Assembly (NCBI GenBank): GCA_009886095.1
Contig: VFJL01000003.1
Coordinates: forward strand, 5,479 to 69,478
Length of the DNA stretch: 64,000 nucleotides
DNA from: Nitrosomonadales bacterium
GTDB taxonomy: Bacteria > Pseudomonadota > Gammaproteobacteria > Burkholderiales > Nitrosomonadaceae
Direction: 5' to 3'
Made by a program: the position numbers and the translations under genes. Under the pieces are notes generated by a model. It made no database searches. It was given only the letters and a program-made list of their open reading frames with translations, and had not been told where the DNA came from. Shown here piece after piece: positions 5,511-59,526 of this stretch (position 1 is its first letter; each line of letters begins with the position of its first letter).

Positions 5511-6596
5511 CTATCGCAACTTCAACGTAGACAACCCAAACAGCACCAGCATCATGGTGATAATCCAGAAACGCACCACCACCTGATTCTCTTTCCAGCC
5601 CTTCAATTCGTAGTGATGATGTAGCGGTGCCATGCGAAAAATACGCTTCCCCGTCAACTTGAACGAAGCCACTTGTAAAATCACTGATAAGGTTTCCACC
5701 ACGAACACACCACCCATGATGACCAGCACGATCTCCTGGCGCACGATTACCGTCACCACACCCAGCGCAGCGCCAAGCGCAAGCGCACCAACGTCGCCCA
5801 TAAATACTTCGGCTGGATAAGCGTTGAACCACAGAAAGGCAAGTCCGGCACCTGCCAGCGCTCCGCAGAATACGGCTAACTCACCTGCATGCGGGACATA
5901 GGGAATACCGAGATATTTCGCGAATACCGCATGACCCGCCACGTAAGCGAAGATTGCCAGAGCGCTACTGATCATCACGGTCGGCATGATGGCCAGACCA
6001 TCGAGGCCGTCGGTTAGGTTCACCGCATTGCTCGTGCCTACTATGACAAAGTAAGCCAACGCCACGAAACCGAACACGCCCAGTGGTATCGCTACCTGCT
6101 TGAAAAAAGGCACAATTAAACTGGTCTGCGATGGCAGATCAGCAGTGAGAACAAGATACAGCGCCACTGAGATCGCAATCACTGATTGCCAGAAAAATTT
6201 GGACTTAGCGGAAAGCCCCTTTGGATTGCGATACACCACCTTGCGATAATCGTCTACCCAGCCGATCACACCAAAACCCAGGGTAGTCAGCAACACCACC
6301 CATATGTAGCGATTGCTCAAATCTGCCCACAGCAAGGTGGTAATGGTGATGGATACTAGAATCAACGCACCGCCCATGGTCGGCGTGCCCGCTTTGACAA
6401 GGTGGGATTGCGGCCCGTCATCGCGTACCGATTGTCCGATTTTATAGGCGGTTAGCTTGCGTATCATGACCGGACCAACAATGAATGAGATCGCCAAGGC
6501 AGTAAGTGCCGCCAACACCGTGCGCAAAGTAATGTAATTAAGCACATTGAATGCACGGACATCCTTGGCAAGCCATTGGGCAAGCTCTAGCAGCAT
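5511..6596 (-). CDS. mraY: phospho-N-acetylmuramoyl-pentapeptide transferase
   Basis: 361-aa polytopic ORF with the [14 protein letters not shown] MraY signature. Canonical dcw position. Confidence 0.95.
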
Positions 6597-50441: not shown

Positions 50442-51461
50442 TTAGCGGTAGCCTGCCCGGTCCATCAGCTTTACCGCTGCCGCCTGCAATTCACCGGCAG
50501 TGGCCACATTCATCGGGTTCTGCTTGAAGTTGCCCCACGCTGCGACCACCGGATCAGGTTTGATTCTGGGATTGGCTGGATACTCCATGTTGATGTCGGC
50601 GAACAGGTTTTGCGCTTTCTCCGACGACAGGAATTCCAGCAGCTTGATCGCCGCCTGTTCATTTTTGGCACCCTTGGTGATACCCGCGCCGGAAACGTTG
50701 ATGTGGACGCCGCTACCGGCCTGATTAGGCCAGAAAATCGCCAGCGGCAGCACAGGATTCTTTGTCAATAGACGGCCATAATAATAGGTATTGACCAGCG
50801 TCACGTCGCATTTCCCGGCAGCGACGAACTCCATCGCCCGGGTATCGTCGGACAACGGGTCGGTGGCGAAATTAGCGACCCAGCCTTTCACGATCTGCTC
50901 GGTTTTGGCCTCGCCATGCTCGGCGATCATCATCGCCACCAGCGACTGGTTATACACCTTCTTGGAAGAGCGCAGACACAACCGCCCTTTCCACTTCGGC
51001 TCGGCCAGATCATCGTAACTGGAAAGCTCGGCAGGTTTTACTTTCTGTGTGTTGTAGACCATGGTGCGAGCACGCACTGACAGCCCGAACCATTGTTTCT
51101 GCGGGTCACGCAGGTGTGCGGGAATATTCGCATCCAGCGTCTTCGACTCCACTGGTCTCAGCAGCCCTTCGCGCGCAGCTTCCCACAGATTGCCCGCATC
51201 GACCGTGATCAGCATATCGGCAGGAGTGTTCTTGCCCTCCGCTTTGAGGCGCGCGAGCAAGGCGCCTTCATTATCGGTGACGAATTTCACCGCAATGCCA
51301 GTGTCCTGAGTGAAAGCATCGAACATCGGCTTGATAAGTTGCTCAATGCGCGCCGAATAAACCACTACCTGCTCGGCATAGGCGACATTAGTGCCCAGCA
51401 GCGCAGTGCAGCACAACATTGCGGCAAGATAGCGGCTAAAGCAGAGTCTCAGCATTTCCAT
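50442..51461 (-). CDS. fbpA: Fe(3+) ABC transporter substrate-binding protein
   Basis: 339-aa ORF with a signal peptide. FbpA/AfuA-like (VVVYSARIEQLIKPMFDAF…). Confidence 0.88.
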   Translation of the reverse strand: MEMLRLCFSRYLAAMLCCTALLGTNVAYAEQVVVYSARIEQLIKPMFDAFTQDTGIAVKFVTDNEGALLARLKAEGKNTPADMLITVDAGNLWEAAREGLLRPVESKTLDANIPAHLRDPQKQWFGLSVRARTMVYNTQKVKPAELSSYDDLAEPKWKGRLCLRSSKKVYNQSLVAMMIAEHGEAKTEQIVKGWVANFATDPLSDDTRAMEFVAAGKCDVTLVNTYYYGRLLTKNPVLPLAIFWPNQAGSGVHINVSGAGITKGAKNEQAAIKLLEFLSSEKAQNLFADINMEYPANPRIKPDPVVAAWGNFKQNPMNVATAGELQAAAVKLMDRAGYR

Positions 51462-51519
51462 TTACTCCAGATCGAATGAACAACGAAATTGGCTATACAT
51501 AGCCTGAATTGATTATATA

Positions 51520-51537
51520 TGAATGATAATAGTTATC
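51520..51537. promoter_or_regulatory. putative Fur box upstream of fbpABC
   Basis: tgaatgataatagttatc matches 14 of 18 positions of ATAATGATAATCATTATC by my hand count. Located 59-76 nt upstream of the fbpA ATG. Confidence 0.5.
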
Positions 51538-51743
51538 AACAAAATATCTCATCTGTGACGCTGAACATTGAATACGAACGGGGGAATTTCGAGGAGTTGA
51601 AGCTGTATATGCTAGGATGCTAGGATGCTAAAGATAAAATAAACGAGCCAATGCGAAGAGTTAATTGCACAGATAAAGAGCAAGATGAACCGGAGCATAC
51701 CGGCTAATCAATTGTTTCCGATACGCTGGGCTATATCGTAGTA

Positions 51744-52067
51744 ATGACCAAAAAAATCAAAACTAAAAGCCTAATTTTAGAAGCCGTGCATGAGACGGCC
51801 AGTGATCTGAGCCGTCTGGGTTTTATCGACAAACGCAAAATGCGCAAGTTCGACGTGCTGTGTCTCGACCCGATACCAGCTTACGACAGCGAGAAAATCC
51901 GCGCGCTACGCGACCATCTACAGTTAAGCCAATCGGTGCTTGCCGCAGTGTTGAACACCAGCCTATCGACAGTGCGTAAATGGGAAATCGGCGAGAAGCA
52001 TCCGAGTGGGCCGTCACTGAAGTTGCTCAACCTTTTGGAGCGCAAAGGGCTGGAAGCTGTTCTTTAA
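51744..52067 (+). CDS. Xre/COG2944-type HTH protein (antitoxin-like)
   Basis: 107-aa ORF. The C-terminal LSQSVLAAVLNTSLSTVRKWEIGEKHPSGPSLKLL is a classic Xre HTH. The N-terminal half resembles the antitoxin partner of RelE/HigB-like toxins. Confidence 0.8.
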   Translation: MTKKIKTKSLILEAVHETASDLSRLGFIDKRKMRKFDVLCLDPIPAYDSEKIRALRDHLQLSQSVLAAVLNTSLSTVRKWEIGEKHPSGPSLKLLNLLERKGLEAVL

Positions 52068-52126
52068 GAATGAGCGTAAATCATAAGCGCGAGGGCAGTG
52101 GTGGATTCATTCGACCAGATTTAGAC

Positions 52127-53731
52127 ATGAACATGAAAAAACAAAAACTCGAACTTACATGGATCGGCAAGGAGAACCGGCCCAAGCTGGAGCCGCGCAT
52201 TTTGCTGGAAGACTCGGCGAAGAGTTATCACGCGAAGCATCGGGTGACGGAGAAGGACATTTTCGACAACCAGCTGATCTTCGGCGACAACTTGCTGGCG
52301 TTGAAGGCTTTGGAGGCGGAGTTTGCGGGGAAGGTGAAGTGCGTGTTTATTGATCCGCCGTACAACACCGGCAGTGCGTTCACGCATTATGACGACGGGG
52401 TGGAGCATTCGATCTGGTTGTCGCTGATGCGCGACCGGCTGGAGATTATCCGGCGGCTGTTGTCGGATGATGGTTCGTTGTGGATCACGATTGATGACAA
52501 CGAAGCGCATTATCTGAAGGTGATGTGCGATGAGATTTTTGGGCGGGTGAATTTTGTAGCTAATGTTGTTTGGCAAAAAAAATATTCGCCAGGGAATAAC
52601 CAAAAGGGAATTTCTTCTGATTTGGATCATGTTCTGGTGTTTGCACGCGACAATCAGAAATGGGCTTGGAATTTGCTGCCAAGATCAGAAAAACAGGATG
52701 CAGCATACAAAAATCCTGATAACGATCCACGAGGATTGTGGAAAGCAAGTGACCTGACTCGTGCGGAGCATCGGGACAGAGATTTTTATCCAATTGTTAC
52801 ACCATCAGGGAAAGAGGCTTTGCCAGCAAACGGAAGAAGTTGGAGCCGTCCCCCTGATGAAATTGAACGGCTGCGCAAAGATAACAGGCTGTGGTTCGGG
52901 CCTAACGGAGATGCAAAACCAAGTTTGAAAAGGTTTTTAACGGAAGTGCAAGACGGTATTGTCGCCAAAGCTATTTGGACACGCGACGAAGTTGGCGACA
53001 ACGAGCAGGCAAAGAAGGAAGCGAAGATTTTGGCGAGTGACGACATCTTCGCGACACCCAAGCCAGAGAAGCTCATCCAACGAGTCATTCAAATCGCGAC
53101 CAACCCCAACGACATCGTCCTCGACTCCTTCGCCGGTTCCGGCACCACTGGCGCAGTCGCCCACAAGATGGGCCGACGCTGGATCATGATTGAGCTGGGT
53201 GAGCATTGCCACACGCACATCATCCCGCGCTTGCAAAAGGTGATTGATGGCGAAGATAAGGGCGGCATTTCCGGGTCAGTAAACTGGCAAGGCGGCGGCG
53301 GTTTTCGCTATTACAAACTCGCGCCCAGCCTGTTGCGACAGGATGCTTATGGGCAGTGGGTCATCAACAAGGAATATAACGCAGAGATGCTGGCGCAAGC
53401 CTTGTGCAAGCTGGAGGGCTTCATCTATGCACCAAGTGATGCACATTACTGGATGCACGGGCATTCCACCGAACGGGATTTTATCTACGTCACCACGGCG
53501 AACCTGAACCACGAGCAGTTGCAGCAGCTTTCCGATGAAGTGGGGATGGAGCGCAGCTTGTTGGTGTTGTGTACCGCTTTCCGTGGACAGGGCGAGTATC
53601 CGAATCTCACCGTGAAGAAGATTCCCAAGCAGGTGCTGTCGCGCTGCGAGTGGGGACATGATGATTATTCGTTGCGGGTGGAGAATCTGCCGCAGGCTCC
53701 AGTTAAGTTGGGGCAGCAGGGGTTGTTTTGA
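52127..53731 (+). CDS. mod: Type III restriction-modification methyltransferase (Mod), amino-MTase beta class
   Basis: DPPYNTG (motif IV) precedes FAGSGTTG (motif I). The ATG at 52127 (MNMKKQKLELTWIGKENRP) lies within the ORF opening at 51980. Confidence 0.9.
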   Translation: MNMKKQKLELTWIGKENRPKLEPRILLEDSAKSYHAKHRVTEKDIFDNQLIFGDNLLALKALEAEFAGKVKCVFIDPPYNTGSAFTHYDDGVEHSIWLSLMRDRLEIIRRLLSDDGSLWITIDDNEAHYLKVMCDEIFGRVNFVANVVWQKKYSPGNNQKGISSDLDHVLVFARDNQKWAWNLLPRSEKQDAAYKNPDNDPRGLWKASDLTRAEHRDRDFYPIVTPSGKEALPANGRSWSRPPDEIERLRKDNRLWFGPNGDAKPSLKRFLTEVQDGIVAKAIWTRDEVGDNEQAKKEAKILASDDIFATPKPEKLIQRVIQIATNPNDIVLDSFAGSGTTGAVAHKMGRRWIMIELGEHCHTHIIPRLQKVIDGEDKGGISGSVNWQGGGGFRYYKLAPSLLRQDAYGQWVINKEYNAEMLAQALCKLEGFIYAPSDAHYWMHGHSTERDFIYVTTANLNHEQLQQLSDEVGMERSLLVLCTAFRGQGEYPNLTVKKIPKQVLSRCEWGHDDYSLRVENLPQAPVKLGQQGLF

Positions 53732-53743
53732 AAAAATACTTTT

Positions 53744-53859
53744 CCGCAGATTACGCAGATTCACGCAGATTAAAAACAAACCATTAAGAACACAAACCGG
53801 AAAAATAAATCATGATTTGGTTGTTGGGTTTAATCTGCGGGAATCTGCGTAATCTGCGG
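53744..53859. repeat. 27/28-bp inverted repeat built from three tandem CGCAGATT units per arm
   Basis: The left arm is ccgcagattacgcagattcacgcagatt (53744-53771) and the right arm is aatctgcgggaatctgcgtaatctgcgg (53832-53859). They have one mismatch and a 60-nt loop. The structure starts 13 nt after the mod stop. Confidence 0.85.
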
Positions 53860-53911
53860 AAAAAGGGTTTGCATGAATTCTATGTAAATCTGCGGACGAT
53901 GAAAGGTTTTT

Positions 53912-54325
53912 ATGGGAAGTGATGAGCAAACCTTTGCGATTATTGGCGCGGCGATGGTAGTGCATCGGCAGCTTGGGCATGGGTTTCTTGAAGCAGTTTA
54001 TCAGGAAGCCTTGGCTGTGGAATTCCAGTACCAAGGTATCCCGTTTGCACGGGAATCTGAGTTGCCTGTCCATTATCGAGGCAAGCTTCTGGTGACTGGT
54101 TATCGTGCCGATTTTGTTTGTTTCGGCGAGGTCATCACTGAATTGAAAGCGTTGGATCGGCTGACGGCAAAAGAAGAATCACAGGTCATCAACTACCTGA
54201 AGGCCAGCGGGGAAACACGGGGGTTGCTGCTGAATTTCGGCGCGAGAAGCCTCGAACACAAACGCCTGATCCTTTCAAACAATCTGTGTGAATCTGCGCA
54301 ATCTGTGGATGGTGAAAAAGCATGA
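53912..54325 (+). CDS. GxxExxY family protein
   Basis: 137-aa ORF containing GFLEAVY (the G-x-x-E-x-x-Y motif) and [22 protein letters not shown] Shine-Dalgarno sequence. Confidence 0.85.
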
Positions 54326-55644
54326 GCGTAAAACCAAAGAAATCCGTGCCCGATACGCCGCATTTGTTCGGCCGCGTCCGGGACATTGTCGAATCGGCCC
54401 GCAGTAACATTGCGCGCACGGTCAACTCCACGCAGGTGGTGTCAAATTGGCTGATCGGGCGCGAGATTGTGGAAGAAGAGCAGCAAGGAAAACGACGCGC
54501 TGGTTATGGTGAGGCGTTGCTGGCCGATCTTGCCGAGCGGCTATTGCGTGAATTTGGGAAAGGCTGGTCGGTACGCCAATTGGAATACTGCCGCAATTTC
54601 TATCTTTCCTATCCGCTGCTTCTCGACTTGGAGAATTCGAACGCAGTGCGTTCGAATTCTGACAGCCCGACTGAACACATTACGAACGCAGTGCGTGCGG
54701 AATTGCCCGTGTCGCGGCTATCGAATGAAAATTCCGAGACAGTGCGTCGGAAATTGTGTGCATCGCTGGACGCGCTCGACATTTACCACGCAGCGCGTGG
54801 AGAATCATGGAAGCCGGGGCAATTGAATCCCAACCTTTCGTGGACGCACTATCGCACTTTGCTACGGGTCAGTCGCATTGAGGCGCGCACCTTTTATGAG
54901 ATAGAGGCTGCTGGCAACGCATGGTCTGCACGCGAAATGGAGCGCCAGATCGGCAGCTTGTTATTTGACCGGCTGGCGAAAAGCCGGGACAAGAAAGGGT
55001 TGATGCGCTTGGCGGTTCATGGTCAGGAAGTTGCACAGCCGATAGATGCGCTGAAAGACCCGGTGGTATTGGAGTTTCTTGATCTGCCGGAATCGCCGCG
55101 TTTGGTGGAATCCAAGCTGGAGCAGGCACTGATCGGCAATCTGGAAACCTTCCTATTGGAGCTGGGTAAAGGTTTTGCGTTTGTTTCACGGCAGGAGCGC
55201 ATCACGCTGGATGGCGACCACTTTTACATTGATCTGGTTTTCTACCACACGGTGTTGAAGTGCTTTGTGCTGATTGACCTGAAGGTGGGAAAACTTACTC
55301 ATGCCGATCTTGGGCAGATTCAATTTTACGTCAATTACTACGACCGCGAGCGGCGCACCGAGGGTGACAATCCGACGCTGGGGCTGATCCTGTGCCCAGA
55401 TAAAAATGACGCCGTGGTGAAATACACGCTGGGCGAACAGCAGGAGCGCAATATTTTCACCAGCCGTTACCAACTCCATTTGCCAACCGTCGAGGAACTT
55501 GAAAACGAGCTTCGGCGGGAGCTTCGTTTCCTGACTCCGCCAGAAGGCAAGACAACCATTAAGAAAACCCTAACAGTTGCCCGGAAAGCCTCACCCAGCT
55601 TGAAAAAATCGGCATCAAAAAAGAAAAAGGGGAATACGGAATGA
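54322..55644 (+). CDS. DUF1016/YhcG-type PD-(D/E)XK nuclease-like protein
   Basis: 440-aa ORF. The C-terminal [41 protein letters not shown] is the YhcG nuclease-fold core. ATGA overlap with the upstream gene. Confidence 0.85.
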
Positions 55645-55766
55645 ACTGCTACACCACCGGGGAAGGCGAAGTCACAGTGGATGAGGCAGTTGTTTCCATT
55701 TTGGAAACAACTGCCGATTTCAACCTGAGATTGGCGCGCTACTTGAAGGGTGAGGGAAAACCATGA
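55641..55766 (+). CDS. 41-codon bridging ORF (hypothetical)
   Basis: [41 protein letters not shown]. It has ATGA overlaps at both ends (with the DUF1016 stop and the res start) and an AAGGGG upstream. No homology recognised. Confidence 0.35.
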   Translation: MNCYTTGEGEVTVDEAVVSILETTADFNLRLARYLKGEGKP

Positions 55767-58450
55767 ACCGCCATGTGAATGCCATCGCCGGGCGCTTGAG
55801 TTTGCGTGCGCCGCAGCGCCGCTCACTGGAGATTCTGGATCGCATCATCGAGATCACGCCACCCGGCAAGGATGTTGACCTTGCATCCGTTCTGGAGATT
55901 ATCCGCAGCGAGTTTCCATCAGTCACGGATTTCGAGCGTGAGTTTCCGTCGTTGTGTTTTGCGTTGGCGACGGGTGTGGGCAAGACGCGGTTGATGGGGG
56001 CGTTCATCAGCTATCTGCATCTCGCACACGGCATCAATAATTTCTTCGTGCTGGCACCGAACCTGACCATCTACAACAAGCTAATCGTGGATTTCAGCGA
56101 CCGCACGCATCCGAAGTATGTATTCAAGGGCATCTCTGAATTCGCCATTGACGCGCCTTCCATCATTACCGGCGACAATTACGACCAGCACGACCCGGCC
56201 AGCGGCACGCTATTCGACGGGGTGCGGATCAATATTTTCAATATCTCGAAAATCAATTCCGAGGTGCGCGGCGGCAAGGCACCGCGCATCAAGCGATTAT
56301 CGGAATATATCGGCGAAAGTTACTTCGATTATCTGGCCGGTTTGCCAGACTTGGTGTTGCTGATGGATGAATCGCATCGCTACCGCGCCAGTGCCGGTAT
56401 CAGGGCGATCAATGAGCTGAAGCCGATCCTGGGGCTGGAACTGACAGCGACGCCATTCGTGGAATCTGCCAGGGGAGCGGTGCCGTTCAAGAACGTCATT
56501 CTTGATTACCCGCTGGGCAAAGCGATGGCAGATGGCTTTGTGAAAGAGCCAGCCGTGGTAACGCGCAAGAATTTCAATCCGGCGGGGATGTCGCCCGAAG
56601 AGATTGAGCGCATGAAACTGGAAGACGGTGTGCGTCTGCACGAGAGCGTGAAGGTGGAGCTGGAAACTTATGCCCGCGAAACCAGTAACCCCATCGTTAA
56701 GCCTTTCCTGCTAGTGATCGCGCGCGATACGACTCATGCCGGGCAGTTGCTGGCATTGATCCAGTCGGATGGATTCTTCGAGGGGCGCTATAAGGACAAA
56801 GTCATACAGGTGGATTCGAGCCGGAGTGGTGCGGATGAGGAGGAGATGATCGCCCGGTTGCTGAAGGTGGAGCACACCGAAGAGCCGACCGAGATCGTCA
56901 TTCACGTCAACATGCTCAAAGAAGGCTGGGACGTAACCAACCTCTACACCATCGTACCGCTGCGAGCGGCCAATGCGCGCACTCTGATCGAGCAATCCAT
57001 TGGGCGCGGCCTGCGCCTGCCATATGGCAGGCGCACGGGTGTAACCGCAGTGGACAGACTGAATATAGTCGCGCATGACAAGTTCCAAGAAATCATCGAC
57101 GCGGCGAATCAGCCTGACTCCACCATTCACTTGAAGGCGGTGGTGCTGGATGACGATGACTTCAGCCAAAAAATTGCGACGATTGTTTCGCAGTCGCAGC
57201 TTGCTACCAAACTGGGAATAAAGCCAACCGATACGAGCGGCAGCACGAAGGTAGCAGGGCAAGATGTGCAACCTATCTTCACCAAACCAGAAGAACAGGA
57301 AGTGGCGCAGATCGCCTACAAGGTAATCCGCAAGCTGGAGAATCAACCGGCGACTGTGCCAACGCTGGCGCACCTGAAAAATCCCGAAGTACAGGCAGCC
57401 ATCGTCAAGGCGGTGCAAGAACAGCATCGTCCCTCGCAAATGGAGTTGGCAGGCGTGACCGAGCAGCCGGACTTCGCCGCTGTTGTGGCAAAGACGGTCG
57501 AGTTGGTAACGCAACAGACGATCGATATTCCGCGCATTCTCGTTGTACCCAAGGGTGAGGTGAAAGCCGGATTCAAACCATTCACCCTGAAGTTGGATGC
57601 ACTAAAGTATCCGGCAGTATCCGATGAACTATGGATTCAGCACCTGCGAACCAACCAGCTTGAGGTGGTGGCGTTAAGCAACAGTGGCATTGAGGAGAAA
57701 CGGTTGGAGGATTATGTCGTCAGTGGTTTGGCGAATTTTGACGATGTCTCTTACGACAACCACGCCGATCTGCTCTACGACCTCGCCACCCAGACTGTGC
57801 GGCATTTCCAGACCTATCTTTCCGAGGATGACACCCGCAAAGTACTGCGCTGCTACCAGCGAGACATCGCACGCTTTGTCTACACCCAAATGCAGGATCA
57901 CTGCTGGGAAGACATGATTGGCTATGAGGTGAAAATCAGCAAGGGCTTTACCGAACTGAAGCAGAGCGCTTATACCTGCTCCGCGCAAGAGCCGCCTGTC
58001 GACTACCGGGTTGCACCGGCGGATAAGAGCAATATGGCGAAATATCTGTTTGGTGGATTCAAGCGCTGCCTCTATCCGGTGCAGAAATTTGATTCCGATT
58101 CGGAACGCAAGTTGGCAGTAATTCTGGAACGCGACGCCATCAAGTGGTTCAAGCCTGCCAAGGGCCAGTTCCAAATTTTCTACCGGCAGAGGGCGGATCA
58201 CCTGGAATACCAACCGGACTTCGTTGCAGAAACGATCGACACGGTCTATATGCTTGAACCCAAAATGCGCAAGGAACTGGAAGACCCAATTGTCATCGCC
58301 AAAAAGGAAGCCGCCATCAGATGGTGTACGAATGCCTCAGACCATGCGGCAAATTATGACGGCAAGCCATGGCAATACTTGCTAATCCCGCATGACGAGA
58401 TTGCAGACAACATAACCTTGGCAGGTCTGGCAGCGCGGTTTTCGGTCTGA
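55763..58450 (+). CDS. res: Type III restriction endonuclease subunit (Res), SF2 helicase plus C-terminal nuclease
   Basis: 895-aa ORF with LATGVGKT (motif I), MDESH (motif II) and C-terminal YQPDFV…YMLEPK, a PD-(D/E)XK-like motif. Confidence 0.92.
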   Translation: MNRHVNAIAGRLSLRAPQRRSLEILDRIIEITPPGKDVDLASVLEIIRSEFPSVTDFEREFPSLCFALATGVGKTRLMGAFISYLHLAHGINNFFVLAPNLTIYNKLIVDFSDRTHPKYVFKGISEFAIDAPSIITGDNYDQHDPASGTLFDGVRINIFNISKINSEVRGGKAPRIKRLSEYIGESYFDYLAGLPDLVLLMDESHRYRASAGIRAINELKPILGLELTATPFVESARGAVPFKNVILDYPLGKAMADGFVKEPAVVTRKNFNPAGMSPEEIERMKLEDGVRLHESVKVELETYARETSNPIVKPFLLVIARDTTHAGQLLALIQSDGFFEGRYKDKVIQVDSSRSGADEEEMIARLLKVEHTEEPTEIVIHVNMLKEGWDVTNLYTIVPLRAANARTLIEQSIGRGLRLPYGRRTGVTAVDRLNIVAHDKFQEIIDAANQPDSTIHLKAVVLDDDDFSQKIATIVSQSQLATKLGIKPTDTSGSTKVAGQDVQPIFTKPEEQEVAQIAYKVIRKLENQPATVPTLAHLKNPEVQAAIVKAVQEQHRPSQMELAGVTEQPDFAAVVAKTVELVTQQTIDIPRILVVPKGEVKAGFKPFTLKLDALKYPAVSDELWIQHLRTNQLEVVALSNSGIEEKRLEDYVVSGLANFDDVSYDNHADLLYDLATQTVRHFQTYLSEDDTRKVLRCYQRDIARFVYTQMQDHCWEDMIGYEVKISKGFTELKQSAYTCSAQEPPVDYRVAPADKSNMAKYLFGGFKRCLYPVQKFDSDSERKLAVILERDAIKWFKPAKGQFQIFYRQRADHLEYQPDFVAETIDTVYMLEPKMRKELEDPIVIAKKEAAIRWCTNASDHAANYDGKPWQYLLIPHDEIADNITLAGLAARFSV

Positions 58451-58468
58451 TTATCGGGGAGGAGTCTG

Positions 58469-58660
58469 ATGGCCAAAGCGAGAACATCAGTGCAAGAACT
58501 GGTTGGAATGATCGAGCGCGGCGACTTTTGGATCATCGCCTCAAACAAGCAACTCAACTTCATCCGGTACGTGAAAACCCTGCTCAAGCAAATGGTGAAT
58601 TATTTGAAGGTGGAAACCCGAACCGACAAGGCACCGACCTTATCTGGGAAGCGGCTTTGA
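58469..58660 (+). pseudogene. possible remnant of a DUF262 (GmrSD-type) gene N-terminus
   Basis: A strong GGAGG RBS precedes MAKARTSVQELVGMIERGD, which resembles DUF262 N-termini as I recall them. After about 58526 the resemblance (…G.P…G..LIWE) continues only in the next frame. Call is from memory. Confidence 0.3.
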
Positions 58661-58692
58661 GGGACAAGACGCTCCGTCGCACTACAGGTGCT

Positions 58693-59526
58693 ATGCCGGA
58701 TGTAAATTCGATGGGGCCGCTATTAACCCTGAAGGAACACGAGATATTGCGCGCGGCAGTGCGGGCCGGTGTGCCGAATGTCGAGTGCTCGCTGGATCTG
58801 GATCGATCGACGGTAATCGTTGCGGTGGGCGTTGAAGGTTGGGTCTGGCAAGGCCGATTATTTCCCTACCTCGAAACCTGTAATGACAGAAGCATCTACT
58901 ACTGGGTTGACGAGACGTTTCAGCCAGTGTCACGATACACGATGTCACTGATCAAACTGGTGCCGACGCATTGGGGGCCGCCGACCTTCGAGATCGATGG
59001 CATCAAAATGCTGCCCACCGCACAAACCTCTCCCTATGCGGATGCCGAACGCAAGGTCGCTTTGATTCAACCACGCGACAAGGTGATTTTGGATACCTGT
59101 GGCGGCCTCGGTTATTTTGCCGCATGGTGTGTGCAGGGCCTGGCCAAGCAGGTGTTTTCTTATGAGAAGAATCCCGACGTGATCTGGTTGCGGGGCCTGA
59201 ATCCCTGGTCGCCCAAGGTTGATGATGTTTTGAGTTTAACGCCCGGTGATATTTGCGAGCAGATCGTGTCGCTGCCCAGTAGTTCGGTCGACGCCATTTT
59301 GCACGACCCTCCGCGCTTCGGTATCGCCGGTGAACTCTACTCACAGGTTTTTTATGACCAGCTTGCCAGGGTGTTGAAGCGCAAAGGTAAGCTGTTTCAC
59401 TACACCGGTGCCCCGAATAAGTTAACCAGCGGCCGCGATGTGCCCAATGAAGTGGCGAAACGCTTGCGACGTGCGGGTTTTATCGCGGAGTTGAGCGGTG
59501 ACGGGGTGTTGGCGGTAAAGAATTAA
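58693..59526 (+). CDS. class I SAM-dependent methyltransferase (COG2521-like)
   Basis: ILDTCGGLGY SAM motif and HDPPRF amino-MTase-like motif. The Met at 58693 lies within the ORF opening at 58528. Confidence 0.8.
   Translation: MPDVNSMGPLLTLKEHEILRAAVRAGVPNVECSLDLDRSTVIVAVGVEGWVWQGRLFPYLETCNDRSIYYWVDETFQPVSRYTMSLIKLVPTHWGPPTFEIDGIKMLPTAQTSPYADAERKVALIQPRDKVILDTCGGLGYFAAWCVQGLAKQVFSYEKNPDVIWLRGLNPWSPKVDDVLSLTPGDICEQIVSLPSSSVDAILHDPPRFGIAGELYSQVFYDQLARVLKRKGKLFHYTGAPNKLTSGRDVPNEVAKRLRRAGFIAELSGDGVLAVKN

Follow-up and report, generated by a model that had tools for sequence, protein, structure and literature searches.

Accessory genes embedded within restriction–modification (R-M) operons are already known. 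The PrrC protein encoded in the EcoprrI Type IC locus is an R-M 'guardian' (review PMC12707154), and both Type I and Type III loci carry interchangeable toxin-like genes in a pattern described as 'repeated toxin displacement' (Makarova et al. 2012, PMC3506569). DUF1016 or RhuM genes have likewise been found between Type I hsd genes and beside Type IIG enzymes (PMC9881135, PMC3424549). Here, we analyse a Type III R-M operon found in a 64,000-nucleotide stretch of DNA from a Nitrosomonadales bacterium (contig VFJL01000003.1, positions 5,479 to 69,478; hereafter the window, from whose first letter coordinates are counted), in which the methyltransferase gene mod and the restriction subunit gene res are separated by an element carrying a gene of the GxxExxY family, by a DUF1016 nuclease gene and by a 122-nt segment spanned by a 41-codon open reading frame (ORF). 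The best explanation, for which we estimate a probability of about 0.65, is that these three would represent separate events stacked in the gap of an intact operon, the mod–res junction of this family appearing to act as a landing site for extra genes.

Further known systems bear comparison with the GxxExxY element. In REP/RAYT (REPIN) systems, a nuclease-type gene is flanked by its own palindromic repeats and many gene-less copies are spread across the genome. Rickettsia palindromic elements and other bacterial miniature inverted-repeat transposable elements (MITEs) insert in frame into coding genes; we know of no dedicated nuclease gene beside them. Small nuclease genes are also found as free-standing phage homing endonuclease genes, which to our knowledge lack terminal repeat arrays, and within ORF-bearing 23S rRNA intervening sequences bounded by inverted repeats.

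The mod–res junction and its DUF1016 gene

The mod gene (52127–53731, + strand) encodes a Type III DNA methyltransferase that matches PF01555 (E 9e-50 in Pfam) and the PADLOC profile MTase_III (751 bits, profile positions 2–559 of 575). Its ORF opens at 51980; the ATG at 52127 fits the N-terminus of the family, with an alternative ATG at 52070. The gene ends directly past the conserved ...GQQGLF at a TGA that lies inside the inserted element. Downstream, on the same strand, res (55763–58450, + strand) encodes a full-length Type III restriction subunit of 895 amino acids, comprising a superfamily 2 (SF2) helicase and a C-terminal PD-ExK nuclease (PF04851, E 1e-19; PADLOC REase_III, 709 bits), with a C-terminal YQPDFVAET...EPK motif that is invariant in eight homologues. 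Res homologues are 84–100% identical across 100% of their length, those of 84–90% identity being abundant in the Betaproteobacteria. The order and orientation of the two genes are those of a Type III system, whereas their spacing, at 2.0 kb, departs from the usual abutment. The locus is an intact Type III R-M operon of a widely transferred family.

An earlier analysis of the window, made from its letters and ORFs without database searches (the sequence-only reading), had described this operon as split by 2.0 kb holding three ORFs, and both the ORFs and their coordinates stand. From mod to res, the interval comprises a 180-nt hairpin spacer (53732–53911), the GxxExxY ORF, the DUF1016 ORF and the 41-codon ORF. 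ATGA overlaps can be read in the sequence at all three downstream junctions (54322, 55641 and 55763), as had also been noted, and from the GxxExxY ORF through to res every gene is chained to the next in this way. The domain assignments made for the two larger ORFs are borne out by matches to PF13366 and TIGR04256 (GxxExxY) and to PF17761 and PF06250 (DUF1016).

A genome scan, taking one genome per species, identified 80 further loci from many phyla in which Res is 64–85% identical. With the end of Mod homology and the start of res located in each, 73 distinct mod–res loci were counted (individual relatives are referred to here by locus number, L001 onwards). The two genes abut in 31 of the 73, to which can be added L001, where the arrangement is the same but mod is frameshifted; cargo lies between them in 41. 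In the 31 abutting relatives the mod stop codon either overlaps the res start or is no more than 17 nt away from it, and Mod continues for at least five, and commonly about six, codons beyond the conserved ...GQQxLF. Where this tail is short, the codons past LF hold a GGAGG-like motif, and the stop codon overlaps the res ATG in most loci.

The cargo is varied even at close range, the three closest contexts differing from one another: mod–res in L001, mod–RhuM–res in L002 and mod–DUF1016–res in L003–L008. Searches with phmmer and Pfam place the cargo in the families DUF1016, RhuM, GxxExxY, Zeta/AAA_33 with a partner of ~60 amino acids, Fic and MNT/HepT, along with DUF433/DUF5615, DUF4258 or DUF4160 with DUF2283, DUF3368, Bro-N, Abi_2 and DUF559. 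In 21 of 40 occupied loci there is a 4-nt overlap between the final cargo ORF and the start of res. L002 retains, between mod and RhuM, a 75 amino acid remnant of the DUF1016 N-terminus (5716–5943), direct evidence that one cargo gene was replaced by another in the gap, and fragments of RhuM are present in the gaps of L023 and L049. The place where mod and res overlap may, in this family of Type III systems, be dedicated to the exchange of back-up defence genes. A census of this gap appears to be new.

A conserved protein of ~60 amino acids (..KDxDL..SL.AMRRAA..A....T.IVV..) is encoded directly upstream of res in six loci (L016 5229–5423, L019 6810–7004, L083 6819–6995, L103 4913–5098, L113 5086–5271 and L198 6182–6367). 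Its gene usually follows that of a Zeta/AAA_33 protein, follows DUF1016 in L198 and stands alone in L019. The protein matches no Pfam family and may be an antitoxin.

The DUF1016 gene of the window (54322–55644, + strand) encodes a YhcG-type PD-(D/E)XK nuclease of 440 amino acids that matches PF17761 (E 3e-34, 118.6 bits against a cut-off of 32.8), PF06250 (E 6e-56, 189.1 bits against a cut-off of 32.5) and the PADLOC candidate PDC-S02 (445 bits). The catalytic residues D304, D319 and K321, which belong to a described PD-(D/E)XK motif class (PMC1189080), are invariant in 36 homologues. DUF1016 is found at the same position of the gap in at least 15 distinct loci, among them L003, L011, L012, L024, L029, L032, L035, L042, L044 and L048 from the genome scan, together with L118, L119, L198 and L201; it is the sole cargo in 10 genome-scan loci and in 12 loci overall. 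L201 has the order mod–DUF1016–res and L198 the order mod–DUF1016–61aa–res, 61aa being a 61 amino acid ORF. The closest DUF1016 homologues, at 71–77% identity, all lie within this gap of the same family, and ratios of nonsynonymous to synonymous substitution (Ka/Ks) of 0.10–0.16 against L118, L003 and L198 indicate purifying selection. Judging from these comparisons, DUF1016 is an old, long-term resident of the gap that is shared with many relatives.

A variable stretch is present in the N-terminal domain of the DUF1016 protein (54520–54725, residues ~67–135). It has no nucleotide similarity to L118, where the flanks are 84% identical, and an alternative frame contains repeated TQCVR strings. 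Pfam places residues 19–217 on just 137 profile positions. A sequence search of the PDB with the DUF1016 protein returned no match at E <= 1.

How does this arrangement compare with those described previously? As in PrrC and toxin displacement, an accessory effector gene lies between R-M core genes, and toxin or nuclease families swap at one position. DUF1016, however, does not resemble PrrC, an anticodon nuclease, its host is a Type III system and its site is the mod/res stop–start overlap; the likeness of DUF1016 to a guardian is one of gene position. Homology to the PrrC/RloC anticodon nucleases is absent, Pfam, NCBIfam and PADLOC scans giving only DUF1016 and PDDEXK families. The Type I and Type IIG loci mentioned above likewise have these same families between R-M core genes, RhuM and DUF1016 alternating in the present gap. 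Those reports are without junction anatomy, whereas here a 4-nt overlap ties the gene to res and the census is that of one Type III family.

The GxxExxY element and its repeat arrays

The GxxExxY, or PDDEXK_3, nuclease ORF (53912–54325, + strand) encodes 137 amino acids. It matches TIGR04256 over residues 6–120 (137.5 bits against a cut-off of 35) and PF13366 (E 4e-38, 130.8 bits against a cut-off of 22), the function of which was listed as 'Unknown' in a 2012 survey of PD-(D/E)XK families. The GxxExxY motif itself reads GFLEAVY (residues 24–30) within a conserved domain spanning residues 5–120, and E27, D67, E77 and K79, which are invariant in 40 homologues, make up an E...D...ExK active site. 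AlphaFold2 models the protein with a predicted local distance difference test (pLDDT) score of 87, falling below 50 in residues 124–137, which are predicted to be disordered. With this model, Foldseek gives Cas4 SSO0001 as the best PDB match (4ic1; E 3e-4, template modelling (TM) score 0.57), and also finds lambda exonuclease and MGME1; the modelled protein resembles the Cas4/RecB-like, restriction endonuclease-like fold. By sequence, the PDB yielded no match at E <= 1. Ka/Ks values of 0.05–0.24 indicate purifying selection, and most GxxExxY homologues possess C-terminal tails of the NLRESAQSAD type.

Comparison with the mod–DUF1016 loci L003 and L011 sets the limits of the GxxExxY element at 53729–54307 (+ strand), so that 579 bp are inserted near the 3' end of mod, in its tail. 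A repeat search located a left terminal array of three CGCAGATT units at 9–10 nt spacing (53743–53771, − strand), an internal array of three AATCTGCG units (53832–53860, + strand) that forms a hairpin with the left array, and a right terminal array of three AATCTG(C/T)G units within the 3' end of the GxxExxY ORF (54281–54309, + strand). A lone extra AATCTGCG unit (53887–53894, + strand) lies 17 nt upstream of the GxxExxY start codon. The left array forms inverted repeats with two partners, the internal array and the right terminal array. The first of these repeats (I1) has arms of 40 nt (53740–53779 and 53824–53863) that are 93% complementary; the second (I2), of 29 nt and 90% complementary with its partner 509 nt distant, constitutes the terminal inverted repeats. 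Each hairpin arm consists of three tandem 9–10-nt units, either CGCAGATT or the complement, AATCTGCG. The 191-nt hairpin stretch has a folding energy of −71.8 kcal/mol, compared with −36.3 ± 3.9 for shuffled sequence (z = −9.2). In the window as a whole the octamer AATCTGCG occurs 12 times against 3.5 expected, a number reached in none of 100 shuffles, and eight of the 12 copies fall within 554 nt (53745–54298); no solo unit arrays are present in the other 63 kb. The 180-nt spacer is as the sequence-only reading described it, but the 27/28-bp stem-loop noted there is larger than was reported, and it belongs with the terminal repeats of the GxxExxY element rather than with mod.

Directly past the right array lies GAT GGT GAA AAA GCA TGA (54308–54325, + strand), which encodes DGEKA followed by a stop codon overlapping the DUF1016 ATG. 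This is a relic of the ancestral mod tail: Mod ends in LF-DGEA in L003 and L011, tails that the relic matches, and in LF-DGDGEP in L201. The relic and these tails together place the 579-bp element between LF and the old mod tail. Since the GxxExxY ORF reads through the right array into that tail, its last 15 codons being the right array (NLCESAQSV) and then the old mod tail, the ATGA at 54322 is the ancestral mod/DUF1016 junction rather than a product of an inserted cassette. Wherever GxxExxY is found in the gap, mod stops right after ...LF or its equivalent (TTT-TGA, TTT-TAA, TTT-TAG or CTA-TGA). Synonymous divergence (Ks) between the window and L118 (53912–54277 against 1493–1900) is 0.31 in the GxxExxY core, compared with 0.70 for Res, 0.91 for DUF1016 and 0.94 for Mod, so the element appears to be younger than its flanks or to have been exchanged more recently.

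Host sequence beside the element is duplicated imperfectly, and over greater lengths, in L043 and L113. In L043 (395–1075) a GxxExxY element lies after the first ~11 res codons, with diverged ~33-nt copies of the 5' end of res on its two sides (MKHHVDPIANR and MNKHVNSIASR); such a duplication suggests arrival via recombination with flanking sequence rather than by simple transposition. In L113 (3720–3990) the 3' end of mod and the hairpin are together duplicated in tandem.

Left, internal and right arrays with the same units surround the closest GxxExxY genes (L095, L099, L103, L108 and L113), the contexts of which are diverse. The order is mod–GxxExxY–res in L095 and L099 and mod–GxxExxY–Zeta–61aa–res in L103 and L113, whilst in L108 the same element lies inside a housekeeping operon, between sdhA and sdhB. 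The closest homologues of the locus, L118 and L119 (Res 92% identical), have the order mod–GxxExxY–DUF1016–RhuM–res. DUF1016 and GxxExxY occupy the gap independently, GxxExxY being the only cargo in several loci and having RhuM or a Zeta-toxin pair beside it in others, and the GxxExxY–DUF1016 pair was seen in one narrow clade only (Res at least 92% identical).

Similar architecture is seen in 80 metagenomic GxxExxY relatives (55–88% identical): 57 have a right array, 53 an inverted left array and 42 both. In 39 of the 53 loci with a left array, an ORF of the same orientation, 90 or more amino acids long, ends no more than 150 nt upstream. The neighbouring genes are mostly of housekeeping type, including those of the CCA/poly(A)-polymerase family, SbcD/SbcC-like, YebC/RuvC, PrpF and acyl-CoA dehydrogenase, with methyltransferases, RhuM or DUF1016 in a minority. 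The unit sequence varies by protein clade (AATCTGCG, TCTTTGTG, TCTTCGCG, GGTTCATC, GTTTCATTT, TTCTGCG and CTTTTCGCG), and distant GxxExxY clades keep the architecture with other units. Arrays lacking a gene are also found, 35 being present in the fetched loci against ~0.2 expected by chance. One of these, in the N-terminal region of mod in L113 (2177–2244), is a complete hairpin of 72 nt with 3 + 3 units that forms a 24-codon in-frame insertion translated as ...PQITQISADSNLRNNLRESAKSAD..., and peptide strings of the PQITQISADSNLRNNLRESAKSAD type are also seen in the tails of several GxxExxY proteins.

The sequence-only reading had taken the three ORFs as one cassette in a four-ORF module, which the independent occurrence of DUF1016 and GxxExxY in the gap does not support. 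GxxExxY is also not specific to R-M: close relatives with the same repeats are found in sdhA–sdhB and by SbcD/SbcC-like, YebC/RuvC and CCA/poly(A)-polymerase-family genes. The sequence-only reading had also asked whether the closest loci carry the cassette or whether this occurs at unrelated sites with its own promoter, and the answer is mixed: L118 and L119 do carry GxxExxY–DUF1016, and GxxExxY does occur at unrelated sites, co-oriented in operons and not behind a promoter of its own. The selfish cassette offered there as an alternative fits the GxxExxY gene, which looks like a separate, self-contained and widespread mobile element. No description of a repeat-bounded GxxExxY element or of the arrays was found in the literature searched, and the element appears to be new.

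Like the REP/RAYT systems, the element has its gene between inverted copies of a short cognate repeat that changes with the protein clade; gene-less hairpins occur at other sites and may be dispersed as in those systems. It differs from them in that GxxExxY is a PD-(D/E)XK protein (Cas4/RecB-like) and not an HUH Y1 transposase, and in that each arm is a triple 9–10-nt array rather than a single REP. The in-frame translation of the 72-nt hairpin in the L113 mod gene and in several GxxExxY tails is reminiscent of Rickettsia palindromic elements and MITEs but, unlike these, the GxxExxY arrays have an associated gene. As with homing endonuclease genes and 23S intervening sequences, a small nuclease gene lies between or within conserved genes without destroying them; one conserved site, the ...LF codons of mod, is occupied by GxxExxY repeatedly, and its Ks is below that of the flanks. 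The terminal repeat arrays of the GxxExxY element set it apart from homing endonuclease genes.

The 122-nt segment, the order of events and the alternatives

The 41-codon ORF (55641–55766, + strand) is probably not a gene. It opens where relatives have the start codon of res, and its own stop forms an ATGA with the res start of the window. In alignment A1 a strain-specific segment of 122 nt (55647–55768) is flanked by duplicated ATGAAC; the junction ...GGAATGAAC followed directly by CGCCATGTGAAT is common to three relatives that differ in their upstream genes, and the segment is present in the window only. Sequence reading and a self-match reveal within it a perfect 13-bp hairpin, GGCAGTTGTTTCC-ATTTT-GGAAACAACTGCC (55685–55715). 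A search of more than 200 loci gave no homologue of the ORF or of the segment besides the strain's own contigs, and the ORF has no Pfam, NCBIfam or PADLOC match; the open frame reported earlier is real but is not a conserved gene. A repeated element was considered as the source of the segment and rejected, there being no other copy in the window or in the >200 loci. RhuM occupies exactly the place of the 41-codon ORF in L118 and L119, and a RhuM relic is a possibility; as a candidate it was rejected, the best local match (EGEVTVDEAVVSILETTAD against EGELVRDSVVANYATTAAD) not being significant, with 18 of 300 shuffles as good, and the L118 RhuM gene being without similarity to the region at the nucleotide level. 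The ORF is probably a by-product.

We propose the following history for the locus. Long ago, the DUF1016 nuclease gene would have taken its place directly after mod. As it ends in an ATGA overlap with res, ribosomes finishing DUF1016 could restart on res. The protein would serve the defence locus as an accessory toxin or nuclease, its amount tied to that of Res, and a working hypothesis is that it is a PrrC-like guardian, a back-up acting when restriction fails. The GxxExxY element would have landed later, in the last codons of mod, giving mod a new stop codon. Because the GxxExxY ORF reads through the right array into what remains of the mod tail, its stop codon would still overlap the DUF1016 start in the old way and the junction would still work. 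The GxxExxY nuclease may recognise its own repeat units, by which means the element would spread or maintain itself along with its gene-less hairpin copies, and we propose that it survives as a selfish passenger because downstream gene expression is unbroken. In a third event, that of the strain-specific 122-nt stretch, what had been the res start codon would have come to open a meaningless frame of 41 codons.

Expression of the operon would be from a single transcript beginning upstream of mod. A scan of the chain found no promoter- or terminator-like sites above chance separating the genes, and in the 180-nt spacer no + strand promoter-like site. Mod would terminate at the TGA of the element and GxxExxY would start from its own ribosome-binding site, for which GAAAGG is a candidate; ribosomes would then pass by stop/start overlap to DUF1016, the 41-codon frame and Res. 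The ATG of res is preceded, at a distance of 8 nt, by a GAGGG motif.

A number of points weigh against this history. The mobility of the element is inferred from its distribution: at sites outside R-M loci no empty/filled pair was found, and comparison of the junctions gave no consistent short target-site duplication. That GxxExxY elements of three clades are located at exactly the same ...LF position of mod could reflect an R-M-linked function rather than pure selfishness. The hairpin, at −71.8 kcal/mol, could reduce read-through from mod, in which case downstream expression would need something undetected, and co-transcription and translational coupling are both predicted from the arrangement of the genes. 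For DUF1016, a PDC-S02 representative alone gave no protection of E. coli B from T4, T5 or T7 (PMC12881386), leaving a role in defence unproven. The AlphaFold2 model of the protein, made with 36 close homologues, has a pLDDT of 46 and is unusable.

Other explanations of the locus have to be set beside the three stacked events. GxxExxY and DUF1016 might act with Res as sensor or accessory nucleases in a genuine four-gene restriction module, the ATGA chain setting the stoichiometry. All four frames are indeed chained, purifying selection acts on both extra proteins, whose catalytic residues are intact, L118 and L119 keep GxxExxY and then DUF1016 in the same order, and the recurrence of GxxExxY at one position of mod in three clades would fit as well. 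We nevertheless regard such a module as quite improbable: the two genes are independent in the gap, with GxxExxY also found beside RhuM or Zeta or alone, most close GxxExxY relatives are in housekeeping operons, the pair is limited to the narrow clade noted above, and the ATGA at 54322 is inherited from the mod/DUF1016 junction. The hairpin could instead be a regulator of the R-M system, an attenuator, RNase III site or terminator that uncouples mod from res and lets methylation come first in a new host, with GxxExxY incidental. It is very stable and lies exactly between mod and the downstream genes, and delayed expression of res is a known requirement of R-M systems. Yet the same arrays flank GxxExxY in sdh and by SbcD/SbcC-like and YebC/RuvC genes, and a plain hairpin has no need of 9–10-nt periodicity in its arms or of a third copy at the 3' end of a gene. 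The stem is followed by GGAAAAAGGG and not by a T-run, and there is no + strand intrinsic terminator call at 53740–53870. In an Rfam scan of 51400–58800 no family reached threshold, the hairpin matching only sub-threshold eukaryotic miRNA precursor models, that is, generic long hairpins. With 31 relatives lacking any spacer as well, a regulatory hairpin seems very unlikely indeed.

A further alternative is that all of the gap genes are selfish, DUF1016 included, and that the junction is simply a well-expressed, often transferred and insertion-tolerant site without benefit to defence. Much of the cargo in relatives is of the classical toxin–antitoxin kind (HepT/MNT, Zeta, Fic, PIN-like), turnover is visible in the DUF1016 remnant of L002 and the RhuM fragments of L023 and L049, and the failure of PDC-S02 alone to protect (PMC12881386) is what this would lead one to expect. 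On the other hand, the position and coupling of DUF1016 have been kept over several phyla with a Ka/Ks near 0.1, the RhuM-domain cargo candidate PDC-S05 was protective in experiments (PMC12881386), and enrichment of DUF1016 beside R-M genes has been described before (PMC3424549, PMC9881135). We consider it unlikely that the whole of the cargo is selfish, and favour three stacked events with a selfish GxxExxY element and a DUF1016 gene that would belong to the defence locus.

Surroundings of the locus and implications

Upstream of mod, at a distance of 60 nt, lies an ORF of 107 amino acids encoding a helix-turn-helix (HTH_3), MqsA-like protein of antitoxin type (51744–52067, + strand), with no partner toxin ORF adjoining. 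This gene was considered as a controller of the family and rejected: it is not next to mod in any other locus examined and is thus not part of the conserved system. Directly 3' of res (58469–59526, + strand) are ORFs of 63 and 332 amino acids, the latter with weak S-adenosylmethionine (SAM)-methyltransferase matches (Methyltransf_30, TRM5/TYW2), all under the Pfam cut-offs. The G+C content is 0.44–0.48 at 51250–52000 and 53500–54250, compared with 0.55–0.60 in the flanking iron-transporter genes, and this is consistent with acquired DNA for the locus and for the GxxExxY element. In the relatives L002, L003, L095, L113, L198 and L201 the R-M genes are flanked by SIR2-HerA, SMC/AAA_21 with DUF2130, LmuB_C, GmrSD, HepT/MNT and a Y4kK-type protease, which places the Type III system of these relatives in defence islands.

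What might be the wider significance of the locus? Tentatively, and allowing that it could well prove wrong, we suggest that the GxxExxY proteins, a very large family, may provide the nuclease in a selfish class of element that has inverted arrays of three clade-specific 9–10-nt units and disperses gene-less hairpins, even in frame within genes. Such elements would insert at operon junctions and at the 3' ends of genes, where the stop codon that they bring, and an ORF that runs on into the former stop/start overlap of the host, would preserve downstream translation; separately, the mod/res overlap would serve as an exchange site for back-up defence genes. For TIGR04256/PF13366 this provides a concrete, testable hypothesis, that of a nuclease paired with its own repeat arrays and inserted in operons without polarity. 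Read-through of the arrays would also explain the odd protein tails that recur in the family (NLRESAQSAD, PQITQISAD), and the spurious 41-codon ORF is likewise accounted for.

For the Type III family itself, the mod/res stop/start overlap is occupied in over half of the sampled loci, by at least 12 toxin, Abi and nuclease families, and the ideas of PrrC and 'toxin displacement' would thereby be extended from Type I to Type III. The family also offers natural variants (empty, DUF1016, RhuM, Zeta and HepT) with which the back-up of restriction could be tested.

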